IMG/VR virus record: IMGVR_UViG_3300031992_000005
Location: 1-64,000 of that record
DNA: 64,000 bases
Source of the DNA: a virus
Reading direction: 5' to 3' (one strand)
In this document: piece after piece, positions 7,139-58,850 of the stretch
Position numbering within the stretch: the first letter of the stretch is position 1
Layout: each line of letters starts with the position of its first letter
Made by a program: the position numbers and the translations under genes
Notes under the pieces: model-generated
The model's input: only the letters and a program-made list of their open reading frames with translations
What the model was told of the DNA's origin: nothing
The model's database searches: none

Positions 7139-7247
7139 AAAAAAAAAAGGGGTCTACTCTCACAAGCGAACCCCCTTGAATGTTGTGGTGGAAAAATTAT
7201 TTAAAAAACCACCACACTCTAATTGAATAATGAGCTTTACCAACATG
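7139..7247 (-). ncRNA. candidate short transcript U3 (about 100 nt, boundaries approximate)
   Basis: Two hairpins: GTGGTGG/CCACCAC at 7185-7215 and GGGGT/ACCCC at 7149-7174 plus T10. The only ORF is a 30-codon one starting inside the promoter motif. Confidence 0.35.
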
Positions 7248-7527: not shown

Positions 7528-10197
7528 CTACTCTTCAACAAGTTCTACTTTTTCTATTGGAGTGACTTTAGTAGTTTCTCCTTCCAGGGTTGCTGAGAAC
7601 TTCGTAACCCCTGGATGTTTTAGCATTACCTCGCTAATAGGAGATATGATATACTTTTCAATATTTCTACTTAAGTCTCTAGCTCCATAGAGAGGATTAC
7701 ACTTACTTATGGTATAATCTCTAAGGGCATTATTTACCTTAATATATACCTTGAATTTGCTCAACTTCTTTTTTATGTCAAGCATCTCGATATTATAGAT
7801 CTTGATTAGATCTTGTGTAGATAATTCATTGAATACTACAATCTTATCAAGTCTATTCAGGAACTCTGGTCTAAACTGTTTTTCTACGGCCTTCATAATG
7901 ACAGCCTTATTTTTCAAAAGCTTATCTTCTCGGTTAGGAGCACCAAAGCCGATGTTCTTATTATTCTTAAGTTCCTTTGTTCCGGTATTTCCTGTAAATA
8001 TAATTACACAGTTGGAGAAATCAACTTCCTCTCCATTTGCCAATTTACATCTACTTGTTTCGAGAATTCCAAGCCAGATGTCATATAGGCTAGGGTGAAT
8101 TTTATCCACTTCGTCAATTAGAATGACGGAGTGCTTTTTTCTTCTCACTTTTTCAAAGATACAATCCTCTCCATATCCTACATAACCTGCAGGACTACCG
8201 ATGAGTTTTGACAATGAATGTTCCTCTTTAAATTCACCTCCATCGATCTTTACAAGATTGTCCAATGAACCGAAGAATATCTTAGCAACTTCTTGTGAAA
8301 TAAGAGTTTTTCCTACACCACTTGGTCCAACAGCCAATATACTGCAAAGAGGCTTTTTCTCATTCCTTAATCCTAAGAAATTTAGCTGTAGTGCTTGAGT
8401 AATTGTATCGATTGCTTCTTGCTGACCAATAACTCTCTTTTCGAGTTCGGCTTTCATGTGAGCAATTTTCTCTCGATCTGTTTGATTTATACTATCAACA
8501 GGTACTCTGGAAATACAACTTACTGCCAGTGCTACATCTGGAATAGTAACCTCTGGCCAAGTTTTCTTTTGATTTCTTTGCTTGTTCAAGGATTTTTCCT
8601 CAGCTTCAATGAGATCTTCGATTTCTGCACATTGATCTTTTAATTCTGTACCCTTATCGAAATCTCTATCTTCTTGAACAGCCTTTATCTTTTCCTTCAC
8701 CAGTTCTTGGAGTTTTTTCTCCAATTCATCCTTCTTTTCAGATACTAGTTCTACTCTTCGTAGGCTAACAATGGCTAGTGATAGATCTAGTACATCTACA
8801 GCTTTGTCTGGAAAGTTCTTATCTGTTATATAACGATCACTCCATCTTACGCAAGCCTCAATGACTTCCTTACTAACCTTTACTCTATGGAACGATTCAT
8901 ATTGACTTTGTATACCTTTCAGAATACGGATTGTTTCTTCCGCAGTTGGAGTAGTTACGTCGACTTGTGTGAATCTTCGATTAAGTGCTGCGTCTTTTTC
9001 GATAAACTTTCTATATTCATCGTTTGTAGTAGCACCAATACACTGGAATTCGCCTCTACTGAGATAAGGTTTAAGGATATTTGCCCCATCACCATTTCCA
9101 CTAGAACCACCATTACCTACTAAGTTATGAAGTTCATCGATGTAAATGATAATATCCTTGTTCTTTATGACCTCCTCAATGATTCTTTGAAGTCTCTCTT
9201 CGTATTCACCTCTATACTTAGTACCTGCTACTAAGTTATTGAGGTTCAGCGAGTAGATCTTCTTATTCTTAAGTCTTTCTGGAACATTACCTTTTACAAT
9301 TTGTTGAGTCAATAGTTCAACAATACTGCTTTTTCCAGTTCCAGCTGCACCTACCAAAGCTACATTAGCTTTCTTTCTCTTTGAGAGAATTTCAATAATG
9401 GACTGTACATAGCCATCTCGTCCAATCACTGGATCATATTTTCCTTCCGCAGCTTCTTTATTCATATTCTGCGCAAATTGATCTAGATATGGAGTTGTGC
9501 TATCCTTATCCATCATGTTTTCCATTATAGGTCTATTATCTCCGTATCTCTCGAAGTCATCTGGATCGTCGTCACTATCTTCTTTATCAGCATCGATGAA
9601 TTCAGCTTTATCATCGTTTTCCGTGACTTTCTTAGCAACGTCTTTAAGAATATTCATCAAGTCACTGAAATTCTTTATGCCTTTATCGTATTTTTTCTCC
9701 TGCCTTTTCTTATTTCCATTAGATTCTTCAAAGGCTGTAAAGAAATCCTGTGGAGTAATTCCTAGTGGAGCAAACATTTCACTCACTAGTTCATCGTGCT
9801 TAAAGATAGCATAGAATATAGTATCTAATTCTACTATTTCTTCTCTATTTTCCAACCCTTTCACAAAATCCATTGCCTCACTAATAACTCCATCCAGTAG
9901 AATACTGCATGGAATAGTATCATCTTCAGTCTTATCTTGGATTTCCTTTGGAATAACTTCAGAGACAGTTTTCTCTCTTTTTTCCAAGTATTCTAAAAGA
10001 CTGTAGACCTTGTTTTCAATTTTGTGAAGAAATCTTCCTACAGCCGGACAATCCCCACCTTCACCTAAGTACTTGTTTATTGCAATATGTACGAAAGTTT
10101 CCGGTATTATCCACTTATAGTGATTTTTCTCCGTGCGTTCTTTACAACGTTTTAATATTTCTTGAACTTCTTCTGAAATAATAATGTGTTTTGACAT
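7528..10197 (-). CDS. ClpC/ClpA/ClpB-family double AAA+ ATPase (unfoldase)
   Basis: 889 aa with a Clp_N-like N-terminus. AAA-1 has GAAGTGKSS plus IIIYIDELH. A short coiled-coil linker follows. AAA-2 has GPSGVGKT plus VILIDEVDK, and GARDLSR lies near the C-terminus. Confidence 0.85.
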   Translation of the reverse strand: MSKHIIISEEVQEILKRCKERTEKNHYKWIIPETFVHIAINKYLGEGGDCPAVGRFLHKIENKVYSLLEYLEKREKTVSEVIPKEIQDKTEDDTIPCSILLDGVISEAMDFVKGLENREEIVELDTIFYAIFKHDELVSEMFAPLGITPQDFFTAFEESNGNKKRQEKKYDKGIKNFSDLMNILKDVAKKVTENDDKAEFIDADKEDSDDDPDDFERYGDNRPIMENMMDKDSTTPYLDQFAQNMNKEAAEGKYDPVIGRDGYVQSIIEILSKRKKANVALVGAAGTGKSSIVELLTQQIVKGNVPERLKNKKIYSLNLNNLVAGTKYRGEYEERLQRIIEEVIKNKDIIIYIDELHNLVGNGGSSGNGDGANILKPYLSRGEFQCIGATTNDEYRKFIEKDAALNRRFTQVDVTTPTAEETIRILKGIQSQYESFHRVKVSKEVIEACVRWSDRYITDKNFPDKAVDVLDLSLAIVSLRRVELVSEKKDELEKKLQELVKEKIKAVQEDRDFDKGTELKDQCAEIEDLIEAEEKSLNKQRNQKKTWPEVTIPDVALAVSCISRVPVDSINQTDREKIAHMKAELEKRVIGQQEAIDTITQALQLNFLGLRNEKKPLCSILAVGPSGVGKTLISQEVAKIFFGSLDNLVKIDGGEFKEEHSLSKLIGSPAGYVGYGEDCIFEKVRRKKHSVILIDEVDKIHPSLYDIWLGILETSRCKLANGEEVDFSNCVIIFTGNTGTKELKNNKNIGFGAPNREDKLLKNKAVIMKAVEKQFRPEFLNRLDKIVVFNELSTQDLIKIYNIEMLDIKKKLSKFKVYIKVNNALRDYTISKCNPLYGARDLSRNIEKYIISPISEVMLKHPGVTKFSATLEGETTKVTPIEKVELVEE

Positions 10198-10248: not shown

Positions 10249-11178
10249 TCATGGGTTTGGAAAAGAGAAAACCGTATTGTGATAAAAATTATCAAATATT
10301 ATTATTTGATTATTAATAGGGTTTGTTTCTTTTTCCATTAAAACATCACATAGGTTTCTTAAATCTTCTCGTACAAGTTCATGAAAACAGCCACCGAAAC
10401 CATTCGGGAATATTATCGTAACTGGATTATCCTGATCAGTAGCTTGCAATAGTTTTCCCATTAGGATGGATAGTAATATTCTACCTGCTTGAACACCCGA
10501 TCCCATTTCAAGTTCTGAAAAACTAACTTGTTTTGTATGGAAAAAATAGTAATGATCTTTCCAGGTTGCATTATCTACCTTTCCTCCGCCAGAGTTGATT
10601 ATTCTATTTACCAAGTAATTTCCAACATTTTTCCTCAAATCTACACTAGAGCTAATGAATTTATCTGATAATTTAAGGTTATCAGGGGAAAATAGATTCA
10701 TAGAATCTATGAAATACAAATTCTTGATTGGCTTAAGAAATTTTTGAAGAATCTGTGGAAGAATTGGTATTTTCCAAGGATCACTAGGAACATCTAGTTT
10801 TATTAAGGCCTCATTATCTTCATCATATTCTAAGTAGTCCTTATTAAACCAGTTATTTTTTAGAATTGCATCTTTAGAGCTATAGTCTATCGTTATTAGG
10901 GCATTTACTTTTTTATCTATTTCTTGATATAAAGCTTCCCTAACAATAAGTCCGTCCTCCAAGTAGATACCATATATTATTATTTTTTCTTTTATATTAG
11001 GATCTTGAAAACCTATGGAAAAGTTACCCGTAAATAATTTAATTTTGTCTTTTCCTTCACTAATTCTTTTTAATAGGTTAGTTACTAAAGGAAAAGATCT
11101 TTCAGGTGAACTCCACCATACTGAATTAAGATCAAAAATTACTTCATATTTTTCTACTAATTTTATATCTGTTATCAT
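10249..11178 (-). CDS. hypothetical protein
   Basis: 309-aa ORF. No confident motif. Confidence 0.6.
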   Translation of the reverse strand: MITDIKLVEKYEVIFDLNSVWWSSPERSFPLVTNLLKRISEGKDKIKLFTGNFSIGFQDPNIKEKIIIYGIYLEDGLIVREALYQEIDKKVNALITIDYSSKDAILKNNWFNKDYLEYDEDNEALIKLDVPSDPWKIPILPQILQKFLKPIKNLYFIDSMNLFSPDNLKLSDKFISSSVDLRKNVGNYLVNRIINSGGGKVDNATWKDHYYFFHTKQVSFSELEMGSGVQAGRILLSILMGKLLQATDQDNPVTIIFPNGFGGCFHELVREDLRNLCDVLMEKETNPINNQIIIFDNFYHNTVFSFPNP

Positions 11179-11228
11179 ACAATATATTTATTATCATACA
11201 GTAATAAGGAAAAGAAAGCTCAGGGAAT

Positions 11229-12101
11229 TTACTTTTTCCCTGAGAAAATTTTTAGAAATGCCTTTAGATCAGTTACGTCTTCTTTAAGCTTTTCTGCTTC
11301 CTCTACAAAGATGTCCAGTACTCTATCATAGATAACACTTGGATCTTCTCGATAATTTGACACATCAACCTCAGGCTTTAGTTCAGTAATACTAGTATAA
11401 CCGTCCCTCTGTTTTAGGAGTTCTCTTTTAGTCATCCAGGTTGATATTTTACCTGTATCTTTATCTTTTCTAACCTGAAATATTATACTAATAGATCTCT
11501 GGCCAAATTCACTAGGCTTGACATAAGGAAGAGTAATTGTGCAGCATAAGACACTGAATGACCTATCTACGTCATCAATGATGTATAAGGTATTATTTTT
11601 TCTTTTTTCTGTAGACGATTTACATAATCCAGCTGCCCTAAGTCTCTTTCCATAGCCTGTTGCAACTTTCATAATATTATTCTCAGACGCCGTTAACCAC
11701 TGAGAGAGGTTTGAATGTTCATCCCAAATATCACTATTTTTAGATTTCTTGAATGTATTGTCTAAGTAATTATTTATCCAATCAACTAACTTATCTGGAT
11801 CTCCAAAGACATCAATGAATTTACAGATATTTGTTCTTATTTTTCTACTTACGTGCTTAGGAGTAAATAAGACGCATAATGTATATATTCTGACACCTTC
11901 ATATCCAGAGATAAACCAAGAACTACCTGTAATAACATTTAGTTCTACTAGGTTATTTTCAAGATATCCAATTAGTGTTTCTGGTTTCCCAAATTCATTC
12001 CCATCGCCAGGAGAATATTTAAACTTATTAAATCTCGAAACATGTTCCTTGAGATAATTAATTGTTTCCGTCGTCGACATAATTAGAATAACCTTTATCA
12101 A
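11229..12101 (-). CDS. hypothetical protein
   Basis: 290-aa ORF. Confidence 0.6.
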   Translation of the reverse strand: MIKVILIMSTTETINYLKEHVSRFNKFKYSPGDGNEFGKPETLIGYLENNLVELNVITGSSWFISGYEGVRIYTLCVLFTPKHVSRKIRTNICKFIDVFGDPDKLVDWINNYLDNTFKKSKNSDIWDEHSNLSQWLTASENNIMKVATGYGKRLRAAGLCKSSTEKRKNNTLYIIDDVDRSFSVLCCTITLPYVKPSEFGQRSISIIFQVRKDKDTGKISTWMTKRELLKQRDGYTSITELKPEVDVSNYREDPSVIYDRVLDIFVEEAEKLKEDVTDLKAFLKIFSGKK

Positions 12102-12501
12102 TTAATATATGCTTTAACATTCCCTTACCTTGTTCAGATTTTATTTCCCTTTGTAATTTCTTAATAAAAGTAACTACCTCTGGTGTAGGAGATTTACCTA
12201 GCATTTTCTCTAAGTCACTTAGTAATTCTCTTTCTTTTTGATCAATTGCACTATTTTCTATAGAATTGAGTATACTAAATATGAGTATGTAATCTAGGTA
12301 TCTGGATTTTTTATAAAACTCCGAATAGGATTTAAGAACTATATATATCCAGGTTAATGGAATAATTATTTTCCATAAAGTACCCATTGTTTCCCATAAA
12401 GTAAATTCTAATTTACCCAGTATTAACCCAGATATAATAGAAATTGCATAGAAACATAAACTTTCTAGGATTAGATATTTTTTATAAAGTTGTTTAAACA
12501 T
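12058..12501 (-). CDS. membrane protein
   Basis: 147 aa with three hydrophobic stretches in the N-terminal half. Confidence 0.55.
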   Translation of the reverse strand: MFKQLYKKYLILESLCFYAISIISGLILGKLEFTLWETMGTLWKIIIPLTWIYIVLKSYSEFYKKSRYLDYILIFSILNSIENSAIDQKERELLSDLEKMLGKSPTPEVVTFIKKLQREIKSEQGKGMLKHILIDKGYSNYVDDGNN

Positions 12502-12510
12502 TTTAGTAAA

Positions 12511-12540
12511 AATTTATGGGGAGTACATAACATACTCCCC
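12511..12540 (-). terminator. hairpin downstream of 12558-13235
   Basis: GGGGAGTA/TACTCCCC 8-bp stem. The T-run is weak (ATAAATTTTT). Confidence 0.45.
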
Positions 12541-12557
12541 TGGTTATTTTAATCTTT

Positions 12558-13235
12558 TTACTGTAATATCCTCCATTCCTGAGCTCGGATTGCACGATTC
12601 AATTCCGAGTTCCTAAGCTTACCCGAGAACTTGTCAGTTGGGTAATAAGGATGGAAGTTTTTAATAGGACGTTCCAGATTTACATCTAAGACATTATATG
12701 TATTTACTGGTTCTAGCCATAAAGATTCACCGTCATCATGAATCTTAAATACGGTGAACTTGTTATCATTTTGGAGAATATCTACATATTTTCCATCAAA
12801 GAATTTATACACATTCCATCTTAGACTATCTCTTAGGTTAATGATAATAGACCTAGAGATTAAATCACCAGAATCCATACTAAAAATCGGAAAGTCTGAT
12901 CCATTCTCTTTGACATTAATAGGCTCATCGTCCCCAAGAATCTTTTTAGTACTTGCTGAGATTAGGTCTTTCTTGACATAATCCGACAAACTCTTTCGAT
13001 TCTTCCTCATCAATAGACGAATAATATCCCCACTATTCATACTTAGGGTTTCTTCGTTTGCCTGAAAATCATCTTTTCCTGTCTTTTCACCTACCTTCGT
13101 AAGAGTTAGGGTAGGCTTCAACTTATCATCTAATCCAGGACTAGTTACCTGATAGAGATAAAAGCTACTACCTATTGCTGTGTTGTTGGTGAAAAATGGA
13201 AAATACTTTCCAATTAATGTATTTACATCCTTCAT
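12558..13235 (-). CDS. hypothetical protein
   Basis: 225-aa ORF. Its start overlaps the infA stop (ATGA). Confidence 0.6.
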
Positions 13236-20642: not shown

Positions 20643-21227
20643 CTAATTTTTTACCCAATCTTGAAGCTCAAGCATTAGGTTCATACTTTTCAGTGTTTTC
20701 TTCAATTCATCTACGATCATAACAATCAGGTCGATTGAAAGAAATCTCTCTTCTTCGTCCTCAGGTTTTTCGTCGATTCCAACGTACAGTTGAAGACCTC
20801 TCTTCTTATCGTAAGAGAGTTGGGCCGAGTATGTACGAGTAGGGGATTCCTGCTTACGTTCTCTGATATAGATAGTGCTTGACCAAGATACCTTGAATTC
20901 ACTTGAATGGGGTTCTTCTTTTTTCTCAGGATTGAATACATAATTCAATCCTCTGGAAATCAAACTATATTTAATGATAAACTTTGGGGTTATAACATTA
21001 ATCCCCGACTTAGTTACTCTTAGATAAGTACTGTCAAAATCTTTGACTGCACCTAATTTGTCGCCAATTGGAATCATTTCACCATCTTCGTGTTTCATCA
21101 ATTCCGACAGACCTTCATCTAATATGAGTGGCATTGCAGCTGCCTTTTTCATTTCGAGGCCTTCTTCTACTAATGTAATAAATTTTGTTTTTCTCATTTT
21201 TTTTTTGAAATTTAAAAAGTTATACAT
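20643..21227 (-). CDS. hypothetical protein
   Basis: 194-aa ORF flanked by a terminator-promoter cassette. Confidence 0.6.
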   Translation of the reverse strand: MYNFLNFKKKMRKTKFITLVEEGLEMKKAAAMPLILDEGLSELMKHEDGEMIPIGDKLGAVKDFDSTYLRVTKSGINVITPKFIIKYSLISRGLNYVFNPEKKEEPHSSEFKVSWSSTIYIRERKQESPTRTYSAQLSYDKKRGLQLYVGIDEKPEDEEERFLSIDLIVMIVDELKKTLKSMNLMLELQDWVKN

Positions 21228-33714: not shown

Positions 33715-34926
33715 TTATTCAATTGGATAAATATCCGATGCGTAAGTACTCCAACCTTCGGCTGCTTTATATACATCTAGACTTTCAGATGGGACGTAGA
33801 ATTTACGACCAGAGGCGTTACCTTCGAATACAGTAATACCCAATTCTGGTGGAGTTGTTGCTAGAATTGTTACGCTAGAAAGATTATTATTATTGTAAAA
33901 TGCATTTTTTTTAATGCTAGTAACTGAGCTTGGTATAGTAACTGCAGTCAAACTATTAGCTGCAAATGCACTTTCGTCAATAATTTTAATACTATCGGAA
34001 AAAGTGATATCTGTTAATGAACAAGCAGCAAAAGCCGAATTACCTATTGACTGTACCCCATATAAAAATTCAACATTTTTTAGATTACTGCAACTTACGA
34101 ATGCTTGTTCAGCTATATTAATGATTGAGCCCGGTATTGTAACCGAGGTTAAACTACTGCAAGTACCAAATGCCATATAGTCAATGCTGGTTACTGAGTC
34201 AGGTATCGTAATAGAAGTTAAGGCAGAACATCCTTGAAATGCCTGATTACCAATACTTGTAACTGAATCTGGAATTGTAATGGAAGTTAAAGAAGAGCAA
34301 CCACTAAATGCTCTACTACCTATACCAGTAACTCCGTCACCTAAAGTAATACATGTTACCTTTCTACAGCCTGAAACGAGGTCATTAGGAACATCAATCT
34401 TCGCATTAAATATTAATTTACTAAACACTTCACTATTATAAATTCCCTGAAGAATTGCAGTTCCTATATAAGTGACTGAACTAGGTATCGTTAGTTCAGT
34501 TAATTCAAAACATCCACCAAATGCGCTATCACCTATACTAGTAACTGAATCTGGAATATTTATGGTTACTATTCCACTACCACCAAAAGCACCCTGACCA
34601 ATACTAGTAACTGAATTTGGAATCATTACTTCGATATTTCCACAACCAACAAATGCACTGTTACCAATACTAGTAACGGAGTTCGGAATTATTACTTTTG
34701 TTAAATTATGGAGTCCACTAAACATGCTTGGAGGAACGATAGTACTGTCTACTAAACTATACTTCACTGTATGTTCCCCCAGTGAATCAAAGGTATATGT
34801 CTTAGTAATTTCAGTTAATTCGATCCCATCGACCTCAACGTTAATGAAATCACCTAGGGATACAGAATTGACACTACTAATTATCTGTGTTGCCTCTTCT
34901 GTACTAGTAACATTAAACTTAGCCAC
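33715..34926 (-). CDS. BspA-type leucine-rich-repeat (LRR_5) protein
   Basis: 403 aa with about 10 repeats of the IP.SVTSIG..AF.GC..L type. The only start in the ORF track is GTG. The frame stays open upstream to 34974 (see the G10 tract). Confidence 0.8.
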   Translation of the reverse strand: MAKFNVTSTEEATQIISSVNSVSLGDFINVEVDGIELTEITKTYTFDSLGEHTVKYSLVDSTIVPPSMFSGLHNLTKVIIPNSVTSIGNSAFVGCGNIEVMIPNSVTSIGQGAFGGSGIVTINIPDSVTSIGDSAFGGCFELTELTIPSSVTYIGTAILQGIYNSEVFSKLIFNAKIDVPNDLVSGCRKVTCITLGDGVTGIGSRAFSGCSSLTSITIPDSVTSIGNQAFQGCSALTSITIPDSVTSIDYMAFGTCSSLTSVTIPGSIINIAEQAFVSCSNLKNVEFLYGVQSIGNSAFAACSLTDITFSDSIKIIDESAFAANSLTAVTIPSSVTSIKKNAFYNNNNLSSVTILATTPPELGITVFEGNASGRKFYVPSESLDVYKAAEGWSTYASDIYPIE

Positions 34927-34937
34927 GATTCGAGTTT

Positions 34938-35093
34938 CTACGGGTTCAGATTCTCCCCCCCCCCTATGAGGTCCTCACTATTGAGAGATGGAAAGTAATC
35001 GCTCTTAACCCTTTTCTTTACATTCGCATAAATATATTCGCTCAATGTATCTCCTCCTAATTCATGGGAGAAACAGTCATTTACGTTGCTCAT
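34938..35093 (-). CDS. 51-aa leader ORF ending just past a G10 tract (possible N-terminus of the LRR protein)
   Basis: Its ATG overlaps the TGA of the DUF488 gene (ATGA). It reads MSNVNDCFSHELGGDTLSEYIYANVKKRVKSDYFPSLNSEDLIGGGENLNP. One extra G, or a -1 slip, fuses it to 33715-34926. Confidence 0.4.
   Translation of the reverse strand: MSNVNDCFSHELGGDTLSEYIYANVKKRVKSDYFPSLNSEDLIGGGENLNP
34955..34964 (-). repeat. G10 homopolymer on the coding strand (C10 on the plus strand)
   Basis: The only long G/C homopolymer I found in this AT-rich window. It sits at the junction of leader ORF 34938-35093 and the LRR frame. Confidence 0.95.
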
Positions 35094-35515
35094 ATTATTA
35101 TCTCATTTATCCTATTAGTTAATAAGCCAGAATTATTTAGTATATCAGCTAGGACGTGTCTGTGACAATTTTCATAGCTGCTACCATATCCTAAGAGAAC
35201 AATTGCTTTTGCTCCACAGCATTCCACAAGTTGTTCAAAAGTCCTAATTACTTTTTCCAAATTGACCTGGCTTATTTCAATTGCGTATCTTTTCTCAAAT
35301 TCTTCCTGTGTAATTAGGTTATCTCTCTTTGCCCTGAATAATTCATTACTAGGGGCAAGATCTTTCATATGTATTGGAGTATCTGAATATCCTCCAATTA
35401 ACGTAGAATTCTTTATGTTTCTGATTATAAAAATTGGTAAGAATTCTTTTTCAATATAATCCTTTAGTGTTAATGGTGACACGAAGGATGTATAAATTTT
35501 CAAATCTGTTTTCAT
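35090..35515 (-). CDS. DUF488-family protein
   Basis: 141 aa. DLAPSNELFRAK...FEKRY...IVLLGYGSSYENCHRHVLADIL matches the DUF488 pattern (APS..L, F...Y, LLC....CHR). Confidence 0.55.
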   Translation of the reverse strand: MKTDLKIYTSFVSPLTLKDYIEKEFLPIFIIRNIKNSTLIGGYSDTPIHMKDLAPSNELFRAKRDNLITQEEFEKRYAIEISQVNLEKVIRTFEQLVECCGAKAIVLLGYGSSYENCHRHVLADILNNSGLLTNRINEIII

Positions 35516-35524
35516 TTACTCGTT

Positions 35525-35950
35525 CTAAAGTTTAGACCCACCAAACTTCCTATACGAGCTTCTAAATCCTGTTGCACTAGCAAATCCTCCTCCAGTTTTC
35601 TGTTTCCCTTTACTAGGGGTGGTGTTAGATTGCTGGTTACTATTGCTGTTATTATTCCCGCTTCCGAACTTTTGGCCGCTAAGCATAAAGCCTGAGGGAG
35701 CGGTATTTAATCTTTTTATTAGTTTCATATTTCCTTCAATAATAGCTCTCATCGTGGCAGAGTCTACGTGATAGGAAATGTCAGGACAATCTAGGAGATC
35801 TACCTTTGACATTCCCGATGTTTGAAGGAAATTATTTAACATAACTAATGCTTCCGTTAGATTAGAAGCTACCATAAGTGAGTCTGTAGTAGGTTCATAG
35901 ACTGCATAGTTGTTCTTTGTTTTATCAAATTTAATAACAACTTCAACCAT
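35525..35950 (-). CDS. hypothetical protein
   Basis: 141 aa with an N/S/G-rich basic C-terminal tail. Confidence 0.55.
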   Translation of the reverse strand: MVEVVIKFDKTKNNYAVYEPTTDSLMVASNLTEALVMLNNFLQTSGMSKVDLLDCPDISYHVDSATMRAIIEGNMKLIKRLNTAPSGFMLSGQKFGSGNNNSNSNQQSNTTPSKGKQKTGGGFASATGFRSSYRKFGGSKL

Positions 35951-44146: not shown

Positions 44147-45727
44147 TTATCTCAGTTGCGCAATAGCATTTTTCATGCGCTTAATGGTTTCTTCCTTGCC
44201 AAGAAAAGCTGCCAACTCATACATATCAGGTCCCTGTCCTGTTCCCACCAAGCAAACACGCCAAGCGTTCCAAGGCTTGAATCCATGTGCCTCCGTCCAT
44301 GCTTCAATCATTTTCTTCAGACTTTCAACAGAGAAGTCATCAAGTGATTCGAGCACACCAATAAGCTCATCCATCTCCATAGCAGTTGTTTCTTTCCAGT
44401 TCTTGCGGACAAACTTATCTTCCTTGTTGTATATTTCAGGAGTTACAAAGAAGAACTTAGTCAGCGGCCAAAGGTCACTGATGAAGCTTACATTCCTCTT
44501 CTTCTTGTTGCCGTCGTTGTCAACATATTCAATCACTTTCTGTTTCATCATCTCCACGACTTGCGCTTCCTGCTGAGGCGTGGATTCAATGCCATTAGCA
44601 CGAAGAATCTTATTAAATTCAGGAACCCACTCCTCCGCTGGCTTTTTGAGTATATACTGGTGATTGAACCAAATGCTCTTCATGTAGTCAAAATGCGCAC
44701 CACACTTTGAGCACTTACTGAGATCGAACCTCTCAATAAGTTCATCCATCGACATTAATTCCTGGTCGTTACCTGGATTCCAACCAAAGAGAGCCAAGAA
44801 ATTGACTAATGCCTCTGGCAGGTAGCCTTTTTCACGATAGCCTGGACTAACCTCTCCCGACTTAGGGTCGTGCCATTCAAGAGGGAACACAGGAAATCCC
44901 AGTTTATCGCCATCGCGCTTTGAGAGTTTTCCATTACCCATACCCACTGGCTTGAGAATCAATGGTAAATGAGCAAAGCGTGGCATTGTGTTCTGCCAAC
45001 CAAATGCTTCATAGAGCAGCACGTGAAGTGGAGCCGAAGGCAACCATTCCTCACCACGAATAACGTGGGAAATCTTCATTAAGTGGTCATCCACAATGTT
45101 TGCCAAGTGATAAGTAGGCAATTCATCAGCACTCTTGTAGAGTACCTTGTCGTCGAGGATACTGCTGTTAATGCTTACATCGCCACGAATCAAGTCATCC
45201 ACATGCACATCACGTCCTGGCTCAATCTTAAAACGAACCACATACTGTTTGCCGTCAGCAATCAGTGCATCCACTTCTTCCTTACTGAGAGTGAGAGAAT
45301 TACGCATCATCATGCGGGTTTTGGCATCGTATTGGAAGTTCTCTATTTCCTGACGCTTAGCATCAAGTTCCTCGGGTGTGTCGAAAGCAAGATAAGCTTT
45401 GCCATCGTCAAGCAACTGCTGTACATATTTCTTATAGATGTCACGGCGTTCACTTTGGCGATATGGGCCATAGTTGCCACCAAAGGAAACACCTTCATCG
45501 AATTTGATTCCTAACCAATTGAACGACTCAATGATATACTCTTCAGCTCCTGGAACAAAACGATTGGAATCGGTGTCTTCGATACGGAAAATCAAGTCAC
45601 CACCATGTTGTTTTGCGAACAAGTAATTGTAGAGAGCTGTGCGAACCCCACCAATGTGCAGAGGTCCTGTTGGGCTGGGTGCAAAACGCACTCTTACCTT
45701 ATTAAATTCATTTGTTTTTGTTACCAT
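44147..45727 (-). CDS. gltX: glutamate--tRNA ligase (GluRS)
   Basis: 526 aa. [16 protein letters not shown] (HIGH motif), FRIEDTD and GKLSKRDG (KMSKS). It is full length including the anticodon-binding region. The N-terminal approx. 130 aa closely resembles Bacteroides GltX as I remember it. Visibly more G+C-rich than the phage background. Confidence 0.93.
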
Positions 45728-54633: not shown

Positions 54634-54698
54634 GTTCAAAAAAAAAATAAGAAGGGAACAACCTAATCTCTAGGTCCCTCCCCTCCTTACTATAAACT

Positions 54699-55964
54699 TT
54701 AGGAAAATATCTTATTTTCTAACTGGATGCTTGATCCGATATTGTCTCCATTCCTACTCTGAATGAAAGTCAATAGGCCGAGCTTCTTTAATCCAAGCAA
54801 AACTACTGCTGCAAAATCCTTTGGATATACACTTTGAATTACTGAAGCAAGTCCCCCAGACAGTTCTGCATCTAAAACTCTCAGAGACAAATTGGCTGTC
54901 TTTTCTGCAAATAACAGTATTGCATTCATTATACCTAACCAAGCCACAATCTTATTGAAGTTAAAGGTTGGACTCAAGAATCTAAATTCTACAGTCTTAT
55001 TAATCCTATAACACAATAAGTTGACTAAGTTCATCCAGTAATATCTGGTAGGTATTCTCCATTTTGCCTCACGAGTAATATCACGTGGATGTGGTTGTGT
55101 GAAACTACCCATGTAATTCTTACCCACCAGGTATGCATATAGTGCATTGAAATTTGGCAGAGAATCTATACTAGGCAATTTCTTACAGTAATCCTTGCCA
55201 GTAGCCTTATACTCTGAACTTCTAAATGCCAGAGGTGGAAGAATAGTCGATAATTCGCATTCTAGCTTCTTACAAACTCGATAGAGATTATAGACTACTT
55301 CTGGTACCATAGGGTAACCCCCCAGGTGAACATGCAGAGAACATTCCTTATTAAAGATGGTATATTCATTCAGGGTATCTACTTGTTGACGAAGGAGATT
55401 AATTCCCTCATTTCCAGAAAGAACCACGGTTGAATATTCCAATCCACCGATAGATCCATCTCTTAGTGGAATAAGACCGTCTCTGAAACAGAGGTGTTCT
55501 GGAATATATCCACCACTTGTCTCAAACTCAAGACCAAAGGTATACTTGAGATATTTAGACAGTTCATAGAAGTCTATCTTTAATAGCTTCTGCTTATCCT
55601 TGAAAATGTCAAAGCTTTCTACAGCCTCATATTTTCTGACGAATCTCTGATAAGGATATCTACCATTTCCATAAGTGAATCTCTCACGAAGATAACCTTC
55701 CTGCGAAAAATCTACAAATTTACTGAAATAAACACCTTGTAAGTTACTGTAGAAAATCTTATCCTTCACCAGCTCATAGCAAGCATTTACTGTTCTGAGA
55801 GAATGTGGGTCTTTGTCGTAATCAATCAACATTAATTGAATGATAGATGCTCTATCCGCTACATATCCGTATATTATGTGGCCATCTTTTAAGAGATCAA
55901 CCACCACTGACATACATCTTCCTTTATTCTCTAGATTTCCAGTATAACTATCTACTACTTTCAT
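54699..55964 (-). CDS. amidoligase (Amidoligase_2 / GCS2-like COOH-NH2 ligase)
   Basis: 421 aa. Contains FGLEFETSGG, GGLEYSTVV and CSLHVHLGG. Confidence 0.7.
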   Translation of the reverse strand: MKVVDSYTGNLENKGRCMSVVVDLLKDGHIIYGYVADRASIIQLMLIDYDKDPHSLRTVNACYELVKDKIFYSNLQGVYFSKFVDFSQEGYLRERFTYGNGRYPYQRFVRKYEAVESFDIFKDKQKLLKIDFYELSKYLKYTFGLEFETSGGYIPEHLCFRDGLIPLRDGSIGGLEYSTVVLSGNEGINLLRQQVDTLNEYTIFNKECSLHVHLGGYPMVPEVVYNLYRVCKKLECELSTILPPLAFRSSEYKATGKDYCKKLPSIDSLPNFNALYAYLVGKNYMGSFTQPHPRDITREAKWRIPTRYYWMNLVNLLCYRINKTVEFRFLSPTFNFNKIVAWLGIMNAILLFAEKTANLSLRVLDAELSGGLASVIQSVYPKDFAAVVLLGLKKLGLLTFIQSRNGDNIGSSIQLENKIFS

Positions 55965-55970
55965 GTTACT

Positions 55971-57392
55971 TTAACCTTTAAATAAGCGAGCAACAAGCGT
56001 TGCTATCTCTGATTTCGTAAATTGTTGATTTGCTTCAACGGCTTTAAATGGTTTACTATACTGTTGACCATAACAAGTCGTTACCAAAGAGCCGTCCCTA
56101 TAGGACTTGGAAAATCCTTCACCCAATCTCTGAATGTGCCCTGTAAAAGGTACCGTCTTAGATCCTTCAACAACTTGGTGAACAATATTCTTGTCATCTA
56201 TGTAGAAAGGCTCTAAGCTGAGATATCTAATCAAGTAGCAATTCTTGATTAAGAAATCCTTGACAGAGGCACAGGTCTTTTTTCTTTGCACGGAAACTTC
56301 TTCCTCGTGTGTTATATATTTCCAGCACCTCTTATTTAAGAGTGGAATTCCGTTATAAAACCAAACTGAATGGGTTGTACAGTTTTTATCTTTTCCAAGA
56401 TCTGCCTCAGGAATTACTCTACCATAAATTGTGAGGTTATACTTACCATTCATAGGTACACCCCTCAATTGATAGGTGAAGTTCTCCATTGCTCTTATGT
56501 AATTAGACTGATGATATACACCATCACTATCATAATAGCCATTATAGACATGAGTATTTCCAAAGGCAGTGGTACCAACACCATTAAAACCAACGGTAGG
56601 TACTCCTCCCCCACTATAATATGTGGCTTTATATGGTTTCGTTTGGATAGCTTTATCTCTACTATAAACTCCAAGATCCACTAATCCATCCTCAGCTGTA
56701 TAAGACATTAAGTGATTTCCGTCAATGGTATATACCTTTTGTCCTCTTCTAAGGGCATCGAGATATTTACCTATTGATGAGAATACAATCTCATCTTCCG
56801 AATCATCAAAAGTCATATACAAAGGTCTTTCTTCCTCAGGCTTTACCGAATATTCTGTTCTCTTAGATATTCCCTTGAAGAACAGACACTTAGGGCTATC
56901 TACTCGATAGTCAATGATTACAAATACACTACCGCCATTATATTCTGACAGTACGTCATATCCCTTGTAATAGAAGATCCTGGCCATGACTTGTGAATCA
57001 GTCATGTCATCTATCTTAATGTTTGGGATATACTTTTGAGCAAGTTCTTTGTAATTATAGATTGTACCGTTATGAAGAACTACAAATCTGATTCTTCCAG
57101 ACTTATCCTTCAAAACAACAGGCTGAGCAGTTCTTTCATTGATGGCACCAACAGATGCTTTTCTACAATGTCCAACTGCTATCGTAGACTCTTTTTTATT
57201 TTTCAGAATCTTACTTTCAGTGAAGAAGTCTTGAAACAGCTTATTATCTCTAACGCCGTATTCATATTCTCCATCGATGAAGATTCCACACGAATCTCCG
57301 CCTCGGGAATCATTGTTGACCCCGAGTACAGAGAATGTAGAATAGTCGAATGCCCGTTTTTTCCTATTTATTATTCCGAAAAGTCCGCACAT
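55971..57392 (-). CDS. class-II (Ntn) glutamine amidotransferase domain protein with unknown C-terminal domain
   Basis: 473 aa. MCGLFGII (Cys2 nucleophile), VGHCRKASVG and VLHNGTIYN. The C-terminal approx. 230 aa is unassigned. Confidence 0.8.
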   Translation of the reverse strand: MCGLFGIINRKKRAFDYSTFSVLGVNNDSRGGDSCGIFIDGEYEYGVRDNKLFQDFFTESKILKNKKESTIAVGHCRKASVGAINERTAQPVVLKDKSGRIRFVVLHNGTIYNYKELAQKYIPNIKIDDMTDSQVMARIFYYKGYDVLSEYNGGSVFVIIDYRVDSPKCLFFKGISKRTEYSVKPEEERPLYMTFDDSEDEIVFSSIGKYLDALRRGQKVYTIDGNHLMSYTAEDGLVDLGVYSRDKAIQTKPYKATYYSGGGVPTVGFNGVGTTAFGNTHVYNGYYDSDGVYHQSNYIRAMENFTYQLRGVPMNGKYNLTIYGRVIPEADLGKDKNCTTHSVWFYNGIPLLNKRCWKYITHEEEVSVQRKKTCASVKDFLIKNCYLIRYLSLEPFYIDDKNIVHQVVEGSKTVPFTGHIQRLGEGFSKSYRDGSLVTTCYGQQYSKPFKAVEANQQFTKSEIATLVARLFKG

Positions 57393-58198
57393 GTTATTTC
57401 TTCTTCTAAGATATAGAACTTTCTAATTAATTCTTTTGCTTTTTCTGCATCACTATTATTAATAGCGACGATAGTATCCTCATACAAAGGAATATTCGAG
57501 CAACTATTATAAGCATTGATTGCTCTCATAACCTGATGGAACACAAACTTAATTGTTTTACTGTTCTTCATCATAGCGCTGGATAATACTCGATACTCAA
57601 CGCCATAATCGGTTAATCTGAAAGCTCCTGCCTTACCATACAGCGATCTTCTCCGAGTATCGGTATCAATAATCACTGATGGTAGTCCTACGAATGCATC
57701 CAGGTACTTTACAAGACACACTGAATCCTCGATATTAGGATTTTCATATCCAATATGCACATGGAATCCTGCTGATCTTAAGCAGGTATTCGTTCCCTTT
57801 GGCTTTGGATTTTCATTCTCAGTGTATGCATTGTAGTCAGGAGAGCACCCAAATAGTTTTGCCAATGGGTGTCTCAGCTGCGTCTTTGGTACCATTTCAC
57901 TTGCAGAACATTTGATTTCCAAATTTGGATCAATGTTCTTGATGTAAGTTGTAATATACTTTTTCATGTAATTGATGTTGTTAAGGAAAGCCAGTTCGCT
58001 AGTAACTGGTGGGATATTGAATTCGGCTAAGATATTATCTATCTCCAATCCAAATCCTTTTGGCATGTCCTCACCAACCCAAGGATTTCCTTTTTCTCCT
58101 GGAATAATACCGATAGCTGATACTACTGGCTTATCGGTTTTTGCACCGTTTACCAGGAACAACTCGGGATCTGCCCCAATTGTAACTTGACTAATCAT
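57371..58198 (-). CDS. phiEco32-type COOH-NH2 ligase (GCS-superfamily amidoligase)
   Basis: 275 aa. Contains TIGADPELFL, GLEIDNILAEFNIPP, AGFHVHIGY and GVEYRVLS. Confidence 0.65.
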   Translation of the reverse strand: MISQVTIGADPELFLVNGAKTDKPVVSAIGIIPGEKGNPWVGEDMPKGFGLEIDNILAEFNIPPVTSELAFLNNINYMKKYITTYIKNIDPNLEIKCSASEMVPKTQLRHPLAKLFGCSPDYNAYTENENPKPKGTNTCLRSAGFHVHIGYENPNIEDSVCLVKYLDAFVGLPSVIIDTDTRRRSLYGKAGAFRLTDYGVEYRVLSSAMMKNSKTIKFVFHQVMRAINAYNSCSNIPLYEDTIVAINNSDAEKAKELIRKFYILEEEITCADFSE

Positions 58199-58850
58199 TG
58201 TTCTTTTCCTCCTTTAATTTGATTTGTACAAGCTGACTTTCGATCAATTCGTTCAACATCTTCACCACTGGCTCAGTATCTCTCATAATCTCTGGATGAC
58301 CTTGAATTGCAAGGCATCTTGGATTTCCAGGCTTGGTATAAAGCACTACTTCAGGCTCCACCTTGATTGAATGAACATCAATCTTATCGCCTGCATAATA
58401 ACTGCTAATAGCATTTGCCCAATAGAGGATCTTGTATTCGTTACCAGGTAGATCAAATGGATACTGCATCTGATGATGAGTCGATGTGATCTGATAAGCA
58501 ACACTGCCATTTGTGATCTCATGTGTTCCGTATCTTGCATGACGATCACAATCCTGAATCAACTTACCTCCGTTCATAACGCAGAGGAACTGAGATCCAC
58601 GGCAAATACCAACTGCCAACTGACTTGGTTTGATCGAATCGAACACCTTCTTTTCTGCAGAGTCTCTACCCGCACTGTAATGCGTAGTCGAATGTGCCTG
58701 ACAGCCATAGAGAGATGGATTTACGTCTTCTCCACCAGTGAAAAGCACTACATCTGCATTCTTGATGTCCTTCACCAATTCATGATTGTTAATGAAATTC
58801 GCATAATAGGTTGAACCACCTACTACAAAAACTTTAATCTTCTTTTCCAT
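58191..58850 (-). CDS. class-I glutamine amidotransferase / peptidase C26 (gamma-glutamyl hydrolase-like)
   Basis: 219 aa. FTGGEDVNPSLYG, GICRGSQFL (nucleophile elbow), HHQM and IQGHPE. Confidence 0.75.
   Translation of the reverse strand: MEKKIKVFVVGGSTYYANFINNHELVKDIKNADVVLFTGGEDVNPSLYGCQAHSTTHYSAGRDSAEKKVFDSIKPSQLAVGICRGSQFLCVMNGGKLIQDCDRHARYGTHEITNGSVAYQITSTHHQMQYPFDLPGNEYKILYWANAISSYYAGDKIDVHSIKVEPEVVLYTKPGNPRCLAIQGHPEIMRDTEPVVKMLNELIESQLVQIKLKEEKNND

Follow-up and report, generated by a model that had tools for sequence, protein, structure and literature searches.

The gene for a BspA-type LRR protein in a phage-like genome carries an uninterrupted run of ten G residues that leaves its two parts one base out of frame, and comparison with related sequences indicates that this is probably a contingency locus of the slipped-strand type and belongs to a small family in the same genome. 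The window that we analyzed is a stretch of 64,000 nucleotides (positions 1 to 64,000 of IMG/VR record IMGVR_UViG_3300031992_000005). The tract lies on the minus strand at 34955-34964 (C10 on the plus strand), between the flanking sequences GAGGACCTCATA ... AGAATCTGAACC, and a tract of 11 G's joins two open reading frames. A first-pass annotation of the window had offered three explanations: phase variation, programmed slippage and a homopolymer sequencing error. We favor phase variation, on the basis of mixed frame offsets among homologs, a joining length that is always 11, length polymorphism, an interrupted paralog, and an intact downstream ORF that appears to be under selection.

The G10 tract and the reading frames on either side

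The tract is far beyond chance expectation. It is the only G/C run in the window longer than 6 nt, the length of the next longest, and the G+C content of the window is 34%. With a first-order model, about 0.01 G/C runs of 10 or more are expected in the window. In the coding DNA of the window, it is also the only homopolymer of 9 or more; the A/T runs of that length in the window, including the A10/T10 runs at 7139-7148, 21197-21206 and 54638-54647, are all either outside long ORFs or just 5' of a start codon. GGG is the rarest glycine codon in the window (7.9%), and because of this the probability of three consecutive GGG codons is only about 5e-4. The first-pass annotation had remarked that such a tract is odd for an AT-rich genome, and these counts bear this out. 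Uninterrupted, located in an ORF and above the length of about seven G's that suffices for mutability, the tract is a homopolymer of the type that is characteristic of a contingency locus.

The TGA of the upstream DUF488 gene (35090..35515, minus strand; Pfam DUF488-N3a, 1.2e-11) overlaps the ATG of a short leader ORF in the sequence ATGA. In the G10 state the leader ORF has 51 codons on the minus strand, from ATG 35093 to a TAG at 34940-34938, 14 nt beyond the tract. It consists of a conserved N-terminal module of 43 amino acids (MSNVNDCFSHELGGDTLSEYIYANVKKRVKSDYFPSLNSEDLI; 34965..35093, minus strand), the tract, and an out-of-frame tail (34938..34954, minus strand; ...ENLNP then TAG) that is translated only at a tract length of 10 (or 7 or 13), giving a stub with the C-terminus GGGENLNP. 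The LRR_5 frame, called from GTG 34926 to 33715, remains open as far upstream as 34974, with no ATG, GTG or TTG ahead of 34926. The segment between the tract and the GTG (34927..34954, minus strand) encodes (G)ESEPVETRI in this frame, and the body called from the GTG (33715..34926, minus strand) comprises a beta-rich N-domain, BspA-type LRR_5 repeats and a C-terminal cap. The 412 codons 3' of the tract in the LRR frame contain no stops. One added G gives a 459-aa ORF reading ...EDLIGGGGESEPVETRIVAKFNV..., with the predicted junction peptide DLIGGGGESEPVETR, whereas translation stops 5 codons after the tract at G10 and 2 codons after it at G9 and G12. Thus, a change in length shifts the frame and causes early termination. 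The first-pass annotation had described the 51-codon ORF with its ATGA overlap and nearby stop, the GTG-only start with its frame open to 34974, and a joined ORF of about 460 amino acids at G11. All of these hold, and a G11 ortholog (L016) encodes the predicted fusion.

Recoding of the leader TAG as a sense codon was considered and rejected: the standard code gives long, closely spaced genes throughout the window, and translation past the TAG would meet a TAA about 17 codons on.

Evidence that the leader and the LRR frame are one gene

The proposal that the leader is a separate, translationally coupled gene does not survive comparison with relatives, which show that the two ORFs form one gene, with the leader as the N-terminal module of its product. 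L016, which is 89% identical to the window at the nucleotide level and has a G11 tract, contains a single 439-aa ORF reading ...SLNSEDLIGGGGESEPVETRIVAKFNVTSTEEATQII..., and two homologs (P0001 and P0153) are fused single ORFs without any tract. Homology to other family members continues upstream of the GTG: the sequence EPVETR(V/L)VAKFNV in three leaderless homologs (P0003, P0006 and P0008) aligns with the segment there. This segment has the same amino acids in L016 and in a second ortholog (L023), and two substitutions in it are silent in no frame but that of the LRR protein. Because the segment is homologous and conserved in the LRR frame, it is coding and the GTG is not the real start; the start called at 34926 is an artefact of ORF calling. 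The frames read beyond the tract are likewise homologous between loci, with PNNMI(K/R)YY in L007, L008, L012 and L013, and EPVET in the window and L008.

It is quite improbable that the G10 allele works as two genes, one for a 51-aa peptide and one for a leaderless LRR protein re-initiated at GTG 34926, with the tract toggling between tagged and untagged forms. Re-initiation would be helped by the spacing at several loci: the GTG is only 11 nt past the leader TAG, the OFF-frame TGA of L013 overlaps an LRR-frame ATG, and L008 has an ATG 15 nt past its OFF-frame stop. In addition, many homologs carry another N-terminal module on the same body. However, the loci do not share a restart codon close by (L010 lacks an obvious one, and that in L012 is distant), the GTG is not preceded by a Shine-Dalgarno-like sequence, and ESEPVETRI, upstream of the GTG, is conserved and selected in the LRR frame.

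Tract length among orthologs and paralogs

A comparison of tract length in related genomes, as suggested in the first-pass annotation, gave lengths of 9, 10 and 11 at the orthologous locus, and the family as a whole spans 7 to 14. The nine loci checked at the DNA level have assembled tracts of 9, 10, 10, 10, 10, 11, 11, 12 and 12, and the length that joins the frames is 11 in all nine. At the orthologous locus, where DUF488 is followed by the leader and the LRR frame, the tract is G9 in L023, G10 in the window and in L001-L004, and G11 in L016; the DUF488 synteny is the same in L001-L005 and L023. Among the DNA-checked paralogs and other relatives, three have G10 (L008, L010 and L013), one has G11 (L007) and two have G12 (L009 and L012). 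Variants seen at the protein level imply G7, G9, G10, G12 and G13. Length differs between close relatives whose flanks are unchanged: it does so among the orthologs, of which L023 is 95% identical to the window, and between L007 (G11) and L012 (G12), which match fully over about 50 nt past the tract and differ by 3 substitutions in the 126-nt leader.

The strain of the window has G10 in every assembly, at the level of the consensus, and exact look-ups of its G6, G7, G8, G9, G11, G12 and G13 products in the collection found none. Four further haplotypes (P0133, P0140, P0144 and P0161) also have a G10 consensus. This prevalence fits a mutational or selective mode at G10, and also a working state of G10 plus slippage. 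Uninterrupted tracts in the ON (in-frame) state are rare in the sample (two of the nine DNA-checked loci), which was drawn via short-protein clusters and so tends to miss long ON products.

Homopolymers of 10 or more are error-prone, and a true tract of G11 misread as G10 would make the locus one ordinary ORF. One contig, L015, breaks about 80 nt after a G14 tract. However, besides the window, four assemblies made from separate runs at separate centres (JGI, Logan) have G10, with flanks that are the same or one SNP apart, and G10 recurs in at least five assemblies and several haplotypes overall. The same types of data gave G9, G11 and G12 at related loci. Because error would not give a consistent G10, we consider the sequencing-error explanation in the first-pass annotation very unlikely, with a probability close to negligible.

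The frame relation and the case for slippage on a fixed template

A fixed G10 template could be the designed state, with RNA polymerase stutter or a -1 ribosomal slip producing a set fraction of full-length protein beside the 51-aa stub. We consider this unlikely, while giving it some weight. G10 is the consensus in all assemblies of the strain and in several other haplotypes, and no other length is as frequent among the paralogs (L008, L010 and L013). Ten identical bases are long enough for polymerase stuttering, and steady low-level expression would also explain a selected downstream ORF in out-of-frame alleles.

However, the frame relation is not conserved, neither as the shared out-of-frame arrangement expected for transcriptional slippage nor as the constant offset expected for a programmed -1 frameshift. 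The offset is -1 in the window, L008, L010 and L013, +1 in L009 and L012, and 0 in L007, L016, P0147 and P0001. The G12 loci would need the opposite shift, and the G11 loci are already in frame. Because G10 loci need -1 and G12 loci need +1, a programmed frameshift of fixed direction does not fit. Two of these members yield the fused protein only: P0001, which has no tract, and P0147, whose 11-nt tract GGGGGAGGGGG (G5-A-G5) is interrupted and in frame. P0147 was found on 10 contigs, two of which are from samples in which the window locus or its ortholog is present as well, and is very probably a paralog within the same genome.

The RNA downstream of the tract also gives no sign of a stimulatory hairpin or pseudoknot. 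The predicted fold of the 90 nt 3' of the tract was worse than that of shuffled sequences (z = +1.69), and an Rfam scan found no match to a frameshift element. Transcriptional slippage sites in bacteria are mostly A/T runs; to our knowledge, GGG is not a typical A-site slippery codon. In the zero frame, G GGG GGG matches the letter pattern of the slippery heptamer X XXY YYZ but is not known as an efficient -1 frameshift site. The absence of a conserved frame relation and of a downstream RNA structure, together with the in-frame relatives, disfavors the programmed slippage put forward in the first-pass annotation, which may contribute a minor extra layer on the switch.

Selection on both sides of the tract

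The 43-aa module is 80-100% identical in protein across paralogs while its synonymous sites are saturated (omega 0.01-0.12). Every glycine third position in the tract remains G although the adjacent synonymous sites of the leader are saturated between paralogs, and the pure-G tract is retained in at least six diverged paralogs. This pattern points to maintenance of the tract at the nucleotide level.

The frame after the tract is intact and appears to be under purifying selection in out-of-frame (OFF) alleles. For the window (G10) and L023 (G9), both OFF, dS was 0.84 and omega 0.31, with no stops; for the window and L016 (G11), omega was 0.19-0.40. Over the dS range of 0.5-1.0, omega was 0.2-0.4 for both OFF-OFF and OFF-ON pairs. 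Thus, the downstream coding sequence of OFF alleles is kept in a functional form, with 412 codons free of stops and an omega of 0.31 for the OFF-OFF pair, as at contingency loci.

These values bear on the idea that the tract is a functionless mutational hotspot in a gene that is frameshifted and either dispensable or decaying in this strain. Most sampled alleles are indeed out of frame at the consensus, and the LRR family in this genome is large and redundant. However, the 412-codon frame is intact with an omega of 0.2-0.4, the tract is pure G in at least six diverged paralogs despite the rarity of GGG and the saturation of neighboring synonymous sites, and every locus joins at 11. We regard a functionless hotspot as improbable.

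The encoded protein and its genomic context

The LRR body matches Pfam LRR_5 (PF13306) in three stretches with an E value of 5.7e-74 (246.5 bits, against a cut-off of 27.7). Its sequence matches in the PDB are LRR surface proteins of gut bacteria (e.g., 4fs7 and 4gt6). When the fused homolog P0001 was modelled with AlphaFold, the body had pLDDT values above 90 and the leader had values of about 40-50 and no secondary structure; on this model, the 43-aa module is probably disordered. PHROG matches were to families of unknown function. Foldseek searches of viral and PDB libraries returned LRR proteins only, and so give no clue to virion attachment.

An exhaustive profile search with the leader found eight matches among 1.84 billion representative proteins. 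Because these eight are the only representatives, the module appears to be restricted to this lineage, and its distribution gives no clue to function. Scans of GTDB genomes and IMG/VR with the leader profile found no relatives, and a search of IMG/VR for the exact flanks separated by a variable gap found nothing. A candidate from IMG/VR that matched a DNA pattern of the leader (L011) was discarded as a chance match; JGI metagenomes gave the same contig (L014) and L015. The region had no match in 50,697 phage records by megablast or blastn, and tblastn of these records with the fused protein matched only the LRR part, in uncultured phages, and never the leader.

The genome is very large and phage-like (contig of at least 354 kb), and is probably from ruminant guts; SRR9006730 and SRR10838750 are among the samples in which it occurs. 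Another paralog in the OFF state (P0142) was found on a contig of 353,905 bp. The neighbors of the locus are DUF488, RNase H, VWA and AAA genes with no tail module, and a scan of about 36 ORFs of the window found no capsid, portal or terminase match. Because of these neighbors and the lack of such matches, a role in host recognition is unsupported. The gene has neither a place in a tail module nor known receptor-binding homology, and the first-pass description of its product as a likely host-recognition protein was a presumption, made for a gene whose neighbors are non-structural. The LRR protein may be virion-borne or host-directed. A scan for promoters and terminators gave hits at chance level only.

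A model for the locus

We propose that the gene encodes a 459-aa protein composed of the 43-aa module, a Gly-rich acidic linker, and a beta-domain followed by a BspA-type LRR binding domain, and that the uninterrupted poly-G tract, which encodes the GGGG of the linker, acts as the contingency locus. Slipped-strand mispairing in phage DNA replication would gain or lose G's. Tracts of 11 (or 8 or 14) would give the full protein, and other lengths would stop translation 0-15 codons past the tract. The G10 consensus of the strain would then be an OFF state, in which most genomes would make the 51-aa stub and a minority of G11 progeny the full protein. Such switching, caused by slippage in replication, would be fast and reversible within a population. 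Members of the family have in common the N-terminal module and the position of the tract, and differ in their C-terminal binding domains; because of this arrangement, one population could vary its binding proteins.

A more specific model is possible, though doubtful. In it, a huge ruminant-gut phage has a family of adhesins (LRR_5, Lcl_C-like and others) that share one disordered docking peptide, each gated by a tract that is ON at G11 at the junction of peptide and domain, so that combinatorial sets of adhesins are displayed at one attachment site used by all of them. When a gene is OFF, its free 43-aa peptide might still fill this site or cap it. If this is true, the family would be a modular, phase-variable repertoire of adhesins in a virus, analogous to the phase variation of bacterial surface antigens.

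Phase variation by repeat slippage is a classic bet-hedging device of bacteria. The locus suggests that huge, uncultivated phages of the ruminant gut use this device too, for a family of LRR binding proteins. Because gene callers report two products here, a 51-aa orphan and an LRR protein with a GTG start, such switches are invisible in standard annotations. Tract length could also serve as a population marker, readable from public metagenome reads, for following phage subpopulations across animals or over time. In phages, experiments are reported to have demonstrated such variation for Campylobacter phages and, in a recent preprint (PMC12633550), for T-even phages.

Comparison with known systems

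In programmed frameshifting and transcriptional slippage (dnaX, transposases of IS elements, the phage tail-chaperone G/GT), a slippery homopolymer also joins two frames and can yield products of two lengths, short and long. In contrast to those systems, the offset here varies among homologs, there is no stimulatory structure, and homologs that are in frame exist. With respect to BspA-type LRR proteins (PF13306), the body is a clear member, and the closest solved structures are cell-surface LRR proteins of gut bacteria; the protein here differs in having no signal peptide, in its lineage-specific module, and in being encoded on a phage-like genome.

Slippage at short repeats in ORFs has been described as bet-hedging in T2/T4 and other coliphages (Gomez, Barrick and Waters 2025 preprint, PMC12633550). 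The counts given there are for repeats at least 6 bases long, in many gene classes, and such repeats were under-represented in tail-fibre genes (PMC12633550). Polymerase slippage at repeats within phage ORFs is common to both systems. In contrast, the tract here is much longer (G10-12), lies in an AT-rich genome whose coding DNA is otherwise free of such homopolymers, and has a position that is conserved across a gene family.

The poly-G genes of Campylobacter jejuni, Haemophilus and Neisseria resemble the locus in several ways. They have an intragenic homopolymer whose length modulo 3 sets the ON or OFF state, length polymorphism in close relatives, interrupted 'locked' alleles, and ORFs that remain intact when OFF. 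Unlike these bacterial contingency loci, the tract here is on a phage-like element, and because of this, switching would occur in phage DNA replication and would act on the phenotype of the virion or of infection.

The arrangement also resembles that in the Fletchervirus phages of Campylobacter, for which hypermutable poly-G tracts of 7-11 in receptor-binding-protein genes are reported (Sorensen et al. 2021, Cell Rep 35:109214, as cited in PMC12633550 and PMC10877375). Both systems have a G tract of about 7-11 in a phage binding-protein gene, a frame that shifts with tract length, and several such genes per genome; the purpose proposed for the Fletchervirus tracts, to produce subpopulations that differ in binding ability, is the one that we propose here. 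We found no sequence relation between the two, as the leader has no match in the 50,697 phage records. The present locus is on a very large, uncultivated genome (contig of at least 354 kb), probably of ruminant-gut origin, and its role in receptor binding and its switching are putative. In contrast to the Fletchervirus genes, the tract is always at the junction between a common 43-aa module and exchangeable C-terminal domains.

A G10 tract separates two open reading frames

A run of ten G (34964-34955) lies on the minus strand in the context ...GAG GAC CTC ATA GGGGGGGGGG AGAATCTGAACCCGTAGAAACTCGAATCGTGGCT... A leader ORF of 51 codons starts at an ATG (35093) that shares an ATGA overlap with the TGA of the DUF488 gene, runs through the tract, and ends at a TAG (34940-34938). 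The LRR_5 frame, also on the minus strand, was called from a GTG at 34926; upstream of it the frame stays open as far as 34974 and contains no other start codon. This geometry, described in the first-pass annotation, was reproduced in full from the window sequence. Adding one G gave an ORF of 459 aa, in agreement with the ~460 aa proposed for a joined G11 allele.

The tract is a strong outlier in the composition of the window, and the earlier description of it as striking in an AT-rich genome holds: the window is 34% G+C, its second-longest G/C run is 6 nt, and ~0.01 runs of ≥10 G/C are expected. GGG is the least used glycine codon in the window (7.9%). None of the 15 A/T homopolymers of ≥9 nt (including 21197-21206) is within a long ORF, the single run apparently inside an ORF being immediately 5' of an in-frame ATG. 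Coding DNA thus seems to exclude long homopolymers, the G10 tract excepted.

The leader and the LRR body are one gene

The leader ORF had been described as separate from the LRR gene, but two fused proteins indicate that they are a single gene. Using the predicted fused N-terminus as a query, we retrieved P0001, a 247-aa single ORF that has the leader as in the window, no tract (...EDLIGEADDNEDEEEDAKLIATFNV...), and an LRR_5 body. The other protein, P0138 (439 aa), clusters at 90% identity with the leader of the window itself. On its contig, L016, the tract is G11 and the flanks are 89% identical to the window; the sequence reads ...SLNSEDLIGGGGESEPVETRIVAKFNVTSTEEATQII..., encoding exactly the junction that had been predicted for the fused ORF.

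The sequence EPVETR(V/L)VAKFNV is matched by the leaderless homologs P0003, P0006 and P0008, so homology reaches past the GTG and into the sequence that separates it from the tract. Within this stretch, the window, L016 and a third orthologous locus (L023) differ by two substitutions, both synonymous in the LRR frame only. For these two reasons, the GTG start at 34926 is an ORF-calling artefact.

Tract length varies among loci, and 11 G joins the frames

Comparison with related genomes, one of the checks suggested initially, revealed several tract lengths. At the orthologous locus the tract was G9 in L023 (95% identical to the window), G10 in the window and in four assemblies from other runs (99.98-100% identical over the 2.1-6.4 kb compared; L001-L004), and G11 in L016. 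Among related leader genes that were checked at the DNA level, we found G10 in L008, L010 and L013, G12 in L009 and L012, and G11, in frame, in L007. Exactly 11 G joins the long downstream frame in all nine DNA-checked loci; a G10 locus falls short of this length by one base, and a G12 locus exceeds it by one. Further lengths (G7, G9, G10, G12 and G13) are implied by short proteins of these clusters that end in GGVM, GGG, GGGVM, GGGG and GGGGVM, respectively. A G14 run follows a leader in L015 (86-99; JGI Ga0255060_10016919), and ~80 nt beyond it the contig ends in unusual sequence containing C6 and G6 runs, which probably reflects a chimera or a break in the assembly at the tract.

The read-through peptide GGGGD.EE..(V/I).(P/S)NNMI(K/R)YY is homologous among L007, L008, L012 and L013, confirming that translation is meant to continue across the tract. 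L007 (147-431) and L012 (441-876) are identical for ~50 nt 3' of the tract, and their 126-nt leaders have 3 substitutions, yet the tract is G11 in one and G12 in the other. Beyond the ~50 nt the sequences are unrelated: L007 has a 94-aa ORF and then a VWA-protein homolog, and L012 has an LRR_5 body. This pattern suggests a recombination breakpoint just past the junction, and hence domain shuffling.

Two other origins had been proposed for the split frame. Programmed slippage would require a constant offset, but the offset varies by locus (-1, +1 or 0), the 90 nt after the tract are less stably folded than shuffled sequence (z = +1.69), and an Rfam scan for a frameshift element gave no match. 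Low-level slippage of polymerase or ribosome on the run could conceivably add some full-length protein. A sequencing error is unlikely, because G10 was found again in independent assemblies and several haplotypes (P0133, P0140, P0144, P0161) and data of the same kinds gave G9, G11 and G12 at other loci.

In the window's own strain, neither the assemblies nor exact look-up of the expected products gave a second tract length, and tract variation was confined to comparisons of paralogs and of diverged strains. The rate and reversibility of switching are therefore judged from the family pattern and known poly-G behaviour. ON alleles (leader and body joined) are a minority among uninterrupted tracts, a ratio not to be over-read, since loci were sampled by way of short-protein clusters, which disfavours the long ON products.

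A paralog with an interrupted, in-frame tract

P0147, an LRR_5 paralog of 391 aa, is present on 10 contigs, of which one is from a sample that also has the window locus (JGI 3300024342) and one from the sample with L016 (ERZ27257205). For P0147, the window's leader (P0124) and an out-of-frame paralog (P0142), the cluster table gives a shared longest contig of 353,905 bp, so the three are very probably in one genome. The P0147 tract, GGGGGAGGGGG, is 11 nt long and in frame, with one interrupting A; in its nearer homologs L008 and L013, the tract is an unbroken G10. Locking of the phase by an interruption of the tract is known from contingency loci. The P0147 allele also shows that the fused protein by itself is a sufficient product. 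Of two further leader-bearing genes in the P0147 region, both tract-less, one encodes an LRR_5 protein of 504 aa and the other a protein of 330 aa with a weak Lcl_C-like domain.

Both parts of the gene are under selection

Between paralogs, dS in the leader is >1 or undefined (saturated), with dN of 0.05-0.13 and omega of ~0.01-0.12, indicating that the leader peptide is translated and constrained. The tract, in these comparisons, remains pure G although third positions are synonymous, a sign of selection at the nucleotide level. Downstream of the tract, dS was 0.84 and omega 0.31 between the window and L023. Between the window and L016, dS was 1.03 and omega 0.40 over the whole aligned region, and 0.67 and 0.19 over the first ~100 codons. 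Downstream of the tract, 412 codons are free of stops. With omega <1, this means that the out-of-frame alleles are not pseudogenes. In comparison with L023 and L016, identity is 95-97% in the flanking genes and the LRR body (33715-34926) is far more diverged (dN 0.26-0.41), making the LRR region a local diversity hotspot.

A lineage-restricted leader on exchangeable bodies

The body is confidently assigned as a beta-domain plus BspA-type LRR (Pfam match 5.7e-74), and its PDB relatives are LRR surface proteins of gut bacteria. In the model of P0001, the body has pLDDT >90 and the 43-aa leader ~40-50; the leader is thus predicted to be unstructured. Reading its sequence by eye, we saw no hydrophobic signal-peptide-like stretch. 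A search of 1.84 billion representative proteins gave only 8 matches to the leader, which is restricted to this lineage. That proteins with differing binding domains share a short N-terminal peptide, followed by a Gly/acidic linker, suggests a common tag for docking or targeting.

In P0002-P0008 and L017 (4678-5997), a second N-terminal module (M.IYLK.F..H..Y......LPNVS.C.....VHYNP) is in the leader's place, on homologous beta-domain plus LRR bodies and on contigs of up to 430 kb. From these sequences, the two modules seem interchangeable on the same body families. Two 51-aa proteins (P0129/P0154; contigs of 521-637 bp) consist of leader residues 1-17 and a C-terminal ...QKTGGGFASATGFRSSYRKFGGSKL, which is the C-terminus of the 141-aa ORF upstream of DUF488 (35525-35950, minus strand); they may be a hybrid or rearrangement. 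The UvrC-like P0148 (581 aa), placed in a 46-aa leader cluster (cluster 4), is evidently a spurious database assignment.

Genome setting

The neighbours of the locus are non-structural (DUF488, RNase H, VWA and AAA proteins). Elsewhere on the minus strand of the window are an 889-aa Lon-like ATP-dependent protease (7528-10197; phrog_4871, 1e-185), whose nearest relatives among phage records, those of uncultured gut phages and of Listeria and Staphylococcus phages, share ~40% identity with it; a class-I Glu/Gln-tRNA synthetase (44147-45727; PF00749, 1e-92, plus an anticodon-binding domain); and a cluster of amidoligase, glutamine-amidotransferase-like, COOH-NH2 ligase and glutamine amidotransferase genes (54699-58850; PHROG matches down to 2e-65), possibly a peptide-ligase or modification system. 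In L017, an NrdD (anaerobic ribonucleotide reductase) gene with an intein and LAGLIDADG-type matches (10764-12848) is a few genes downstream of the paralog locus.

The tRNA synthetase gene and a contig of at least 354 kb fit a 'huge phage'. The leader is present on contigs of up to 353,905 bp, and searches of GTDB genomes and IMG/VR for leader relatives gave none, pointing to an uncultivated huge phage. The sample codes SHIW14, STEW19 and TONG22 suggest the ruminant gut as the source.

Comparison with known systems

Poly-G contingency loci are already known in phages. In Campylobacter Fletchervirus phages, poly-G tracts of 7-11 in receptor-binding proteins generate phenotypic subpopulations (Sorensen 2021, as summarised in PMC12633550; also listed in PMC10877375). 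A 2025 preprint (PMC12633550) shows that T2/T4 have contingency loci and puts forward the view that such loci are widespread among phages. The present locus would work in the same manner, but it is unrelated in sequence and is in another kind of phage. It has its own layout, in which a conserved tag, a tract and an exchangeable domain are combined and the gene is ON at 11 throughout the family.
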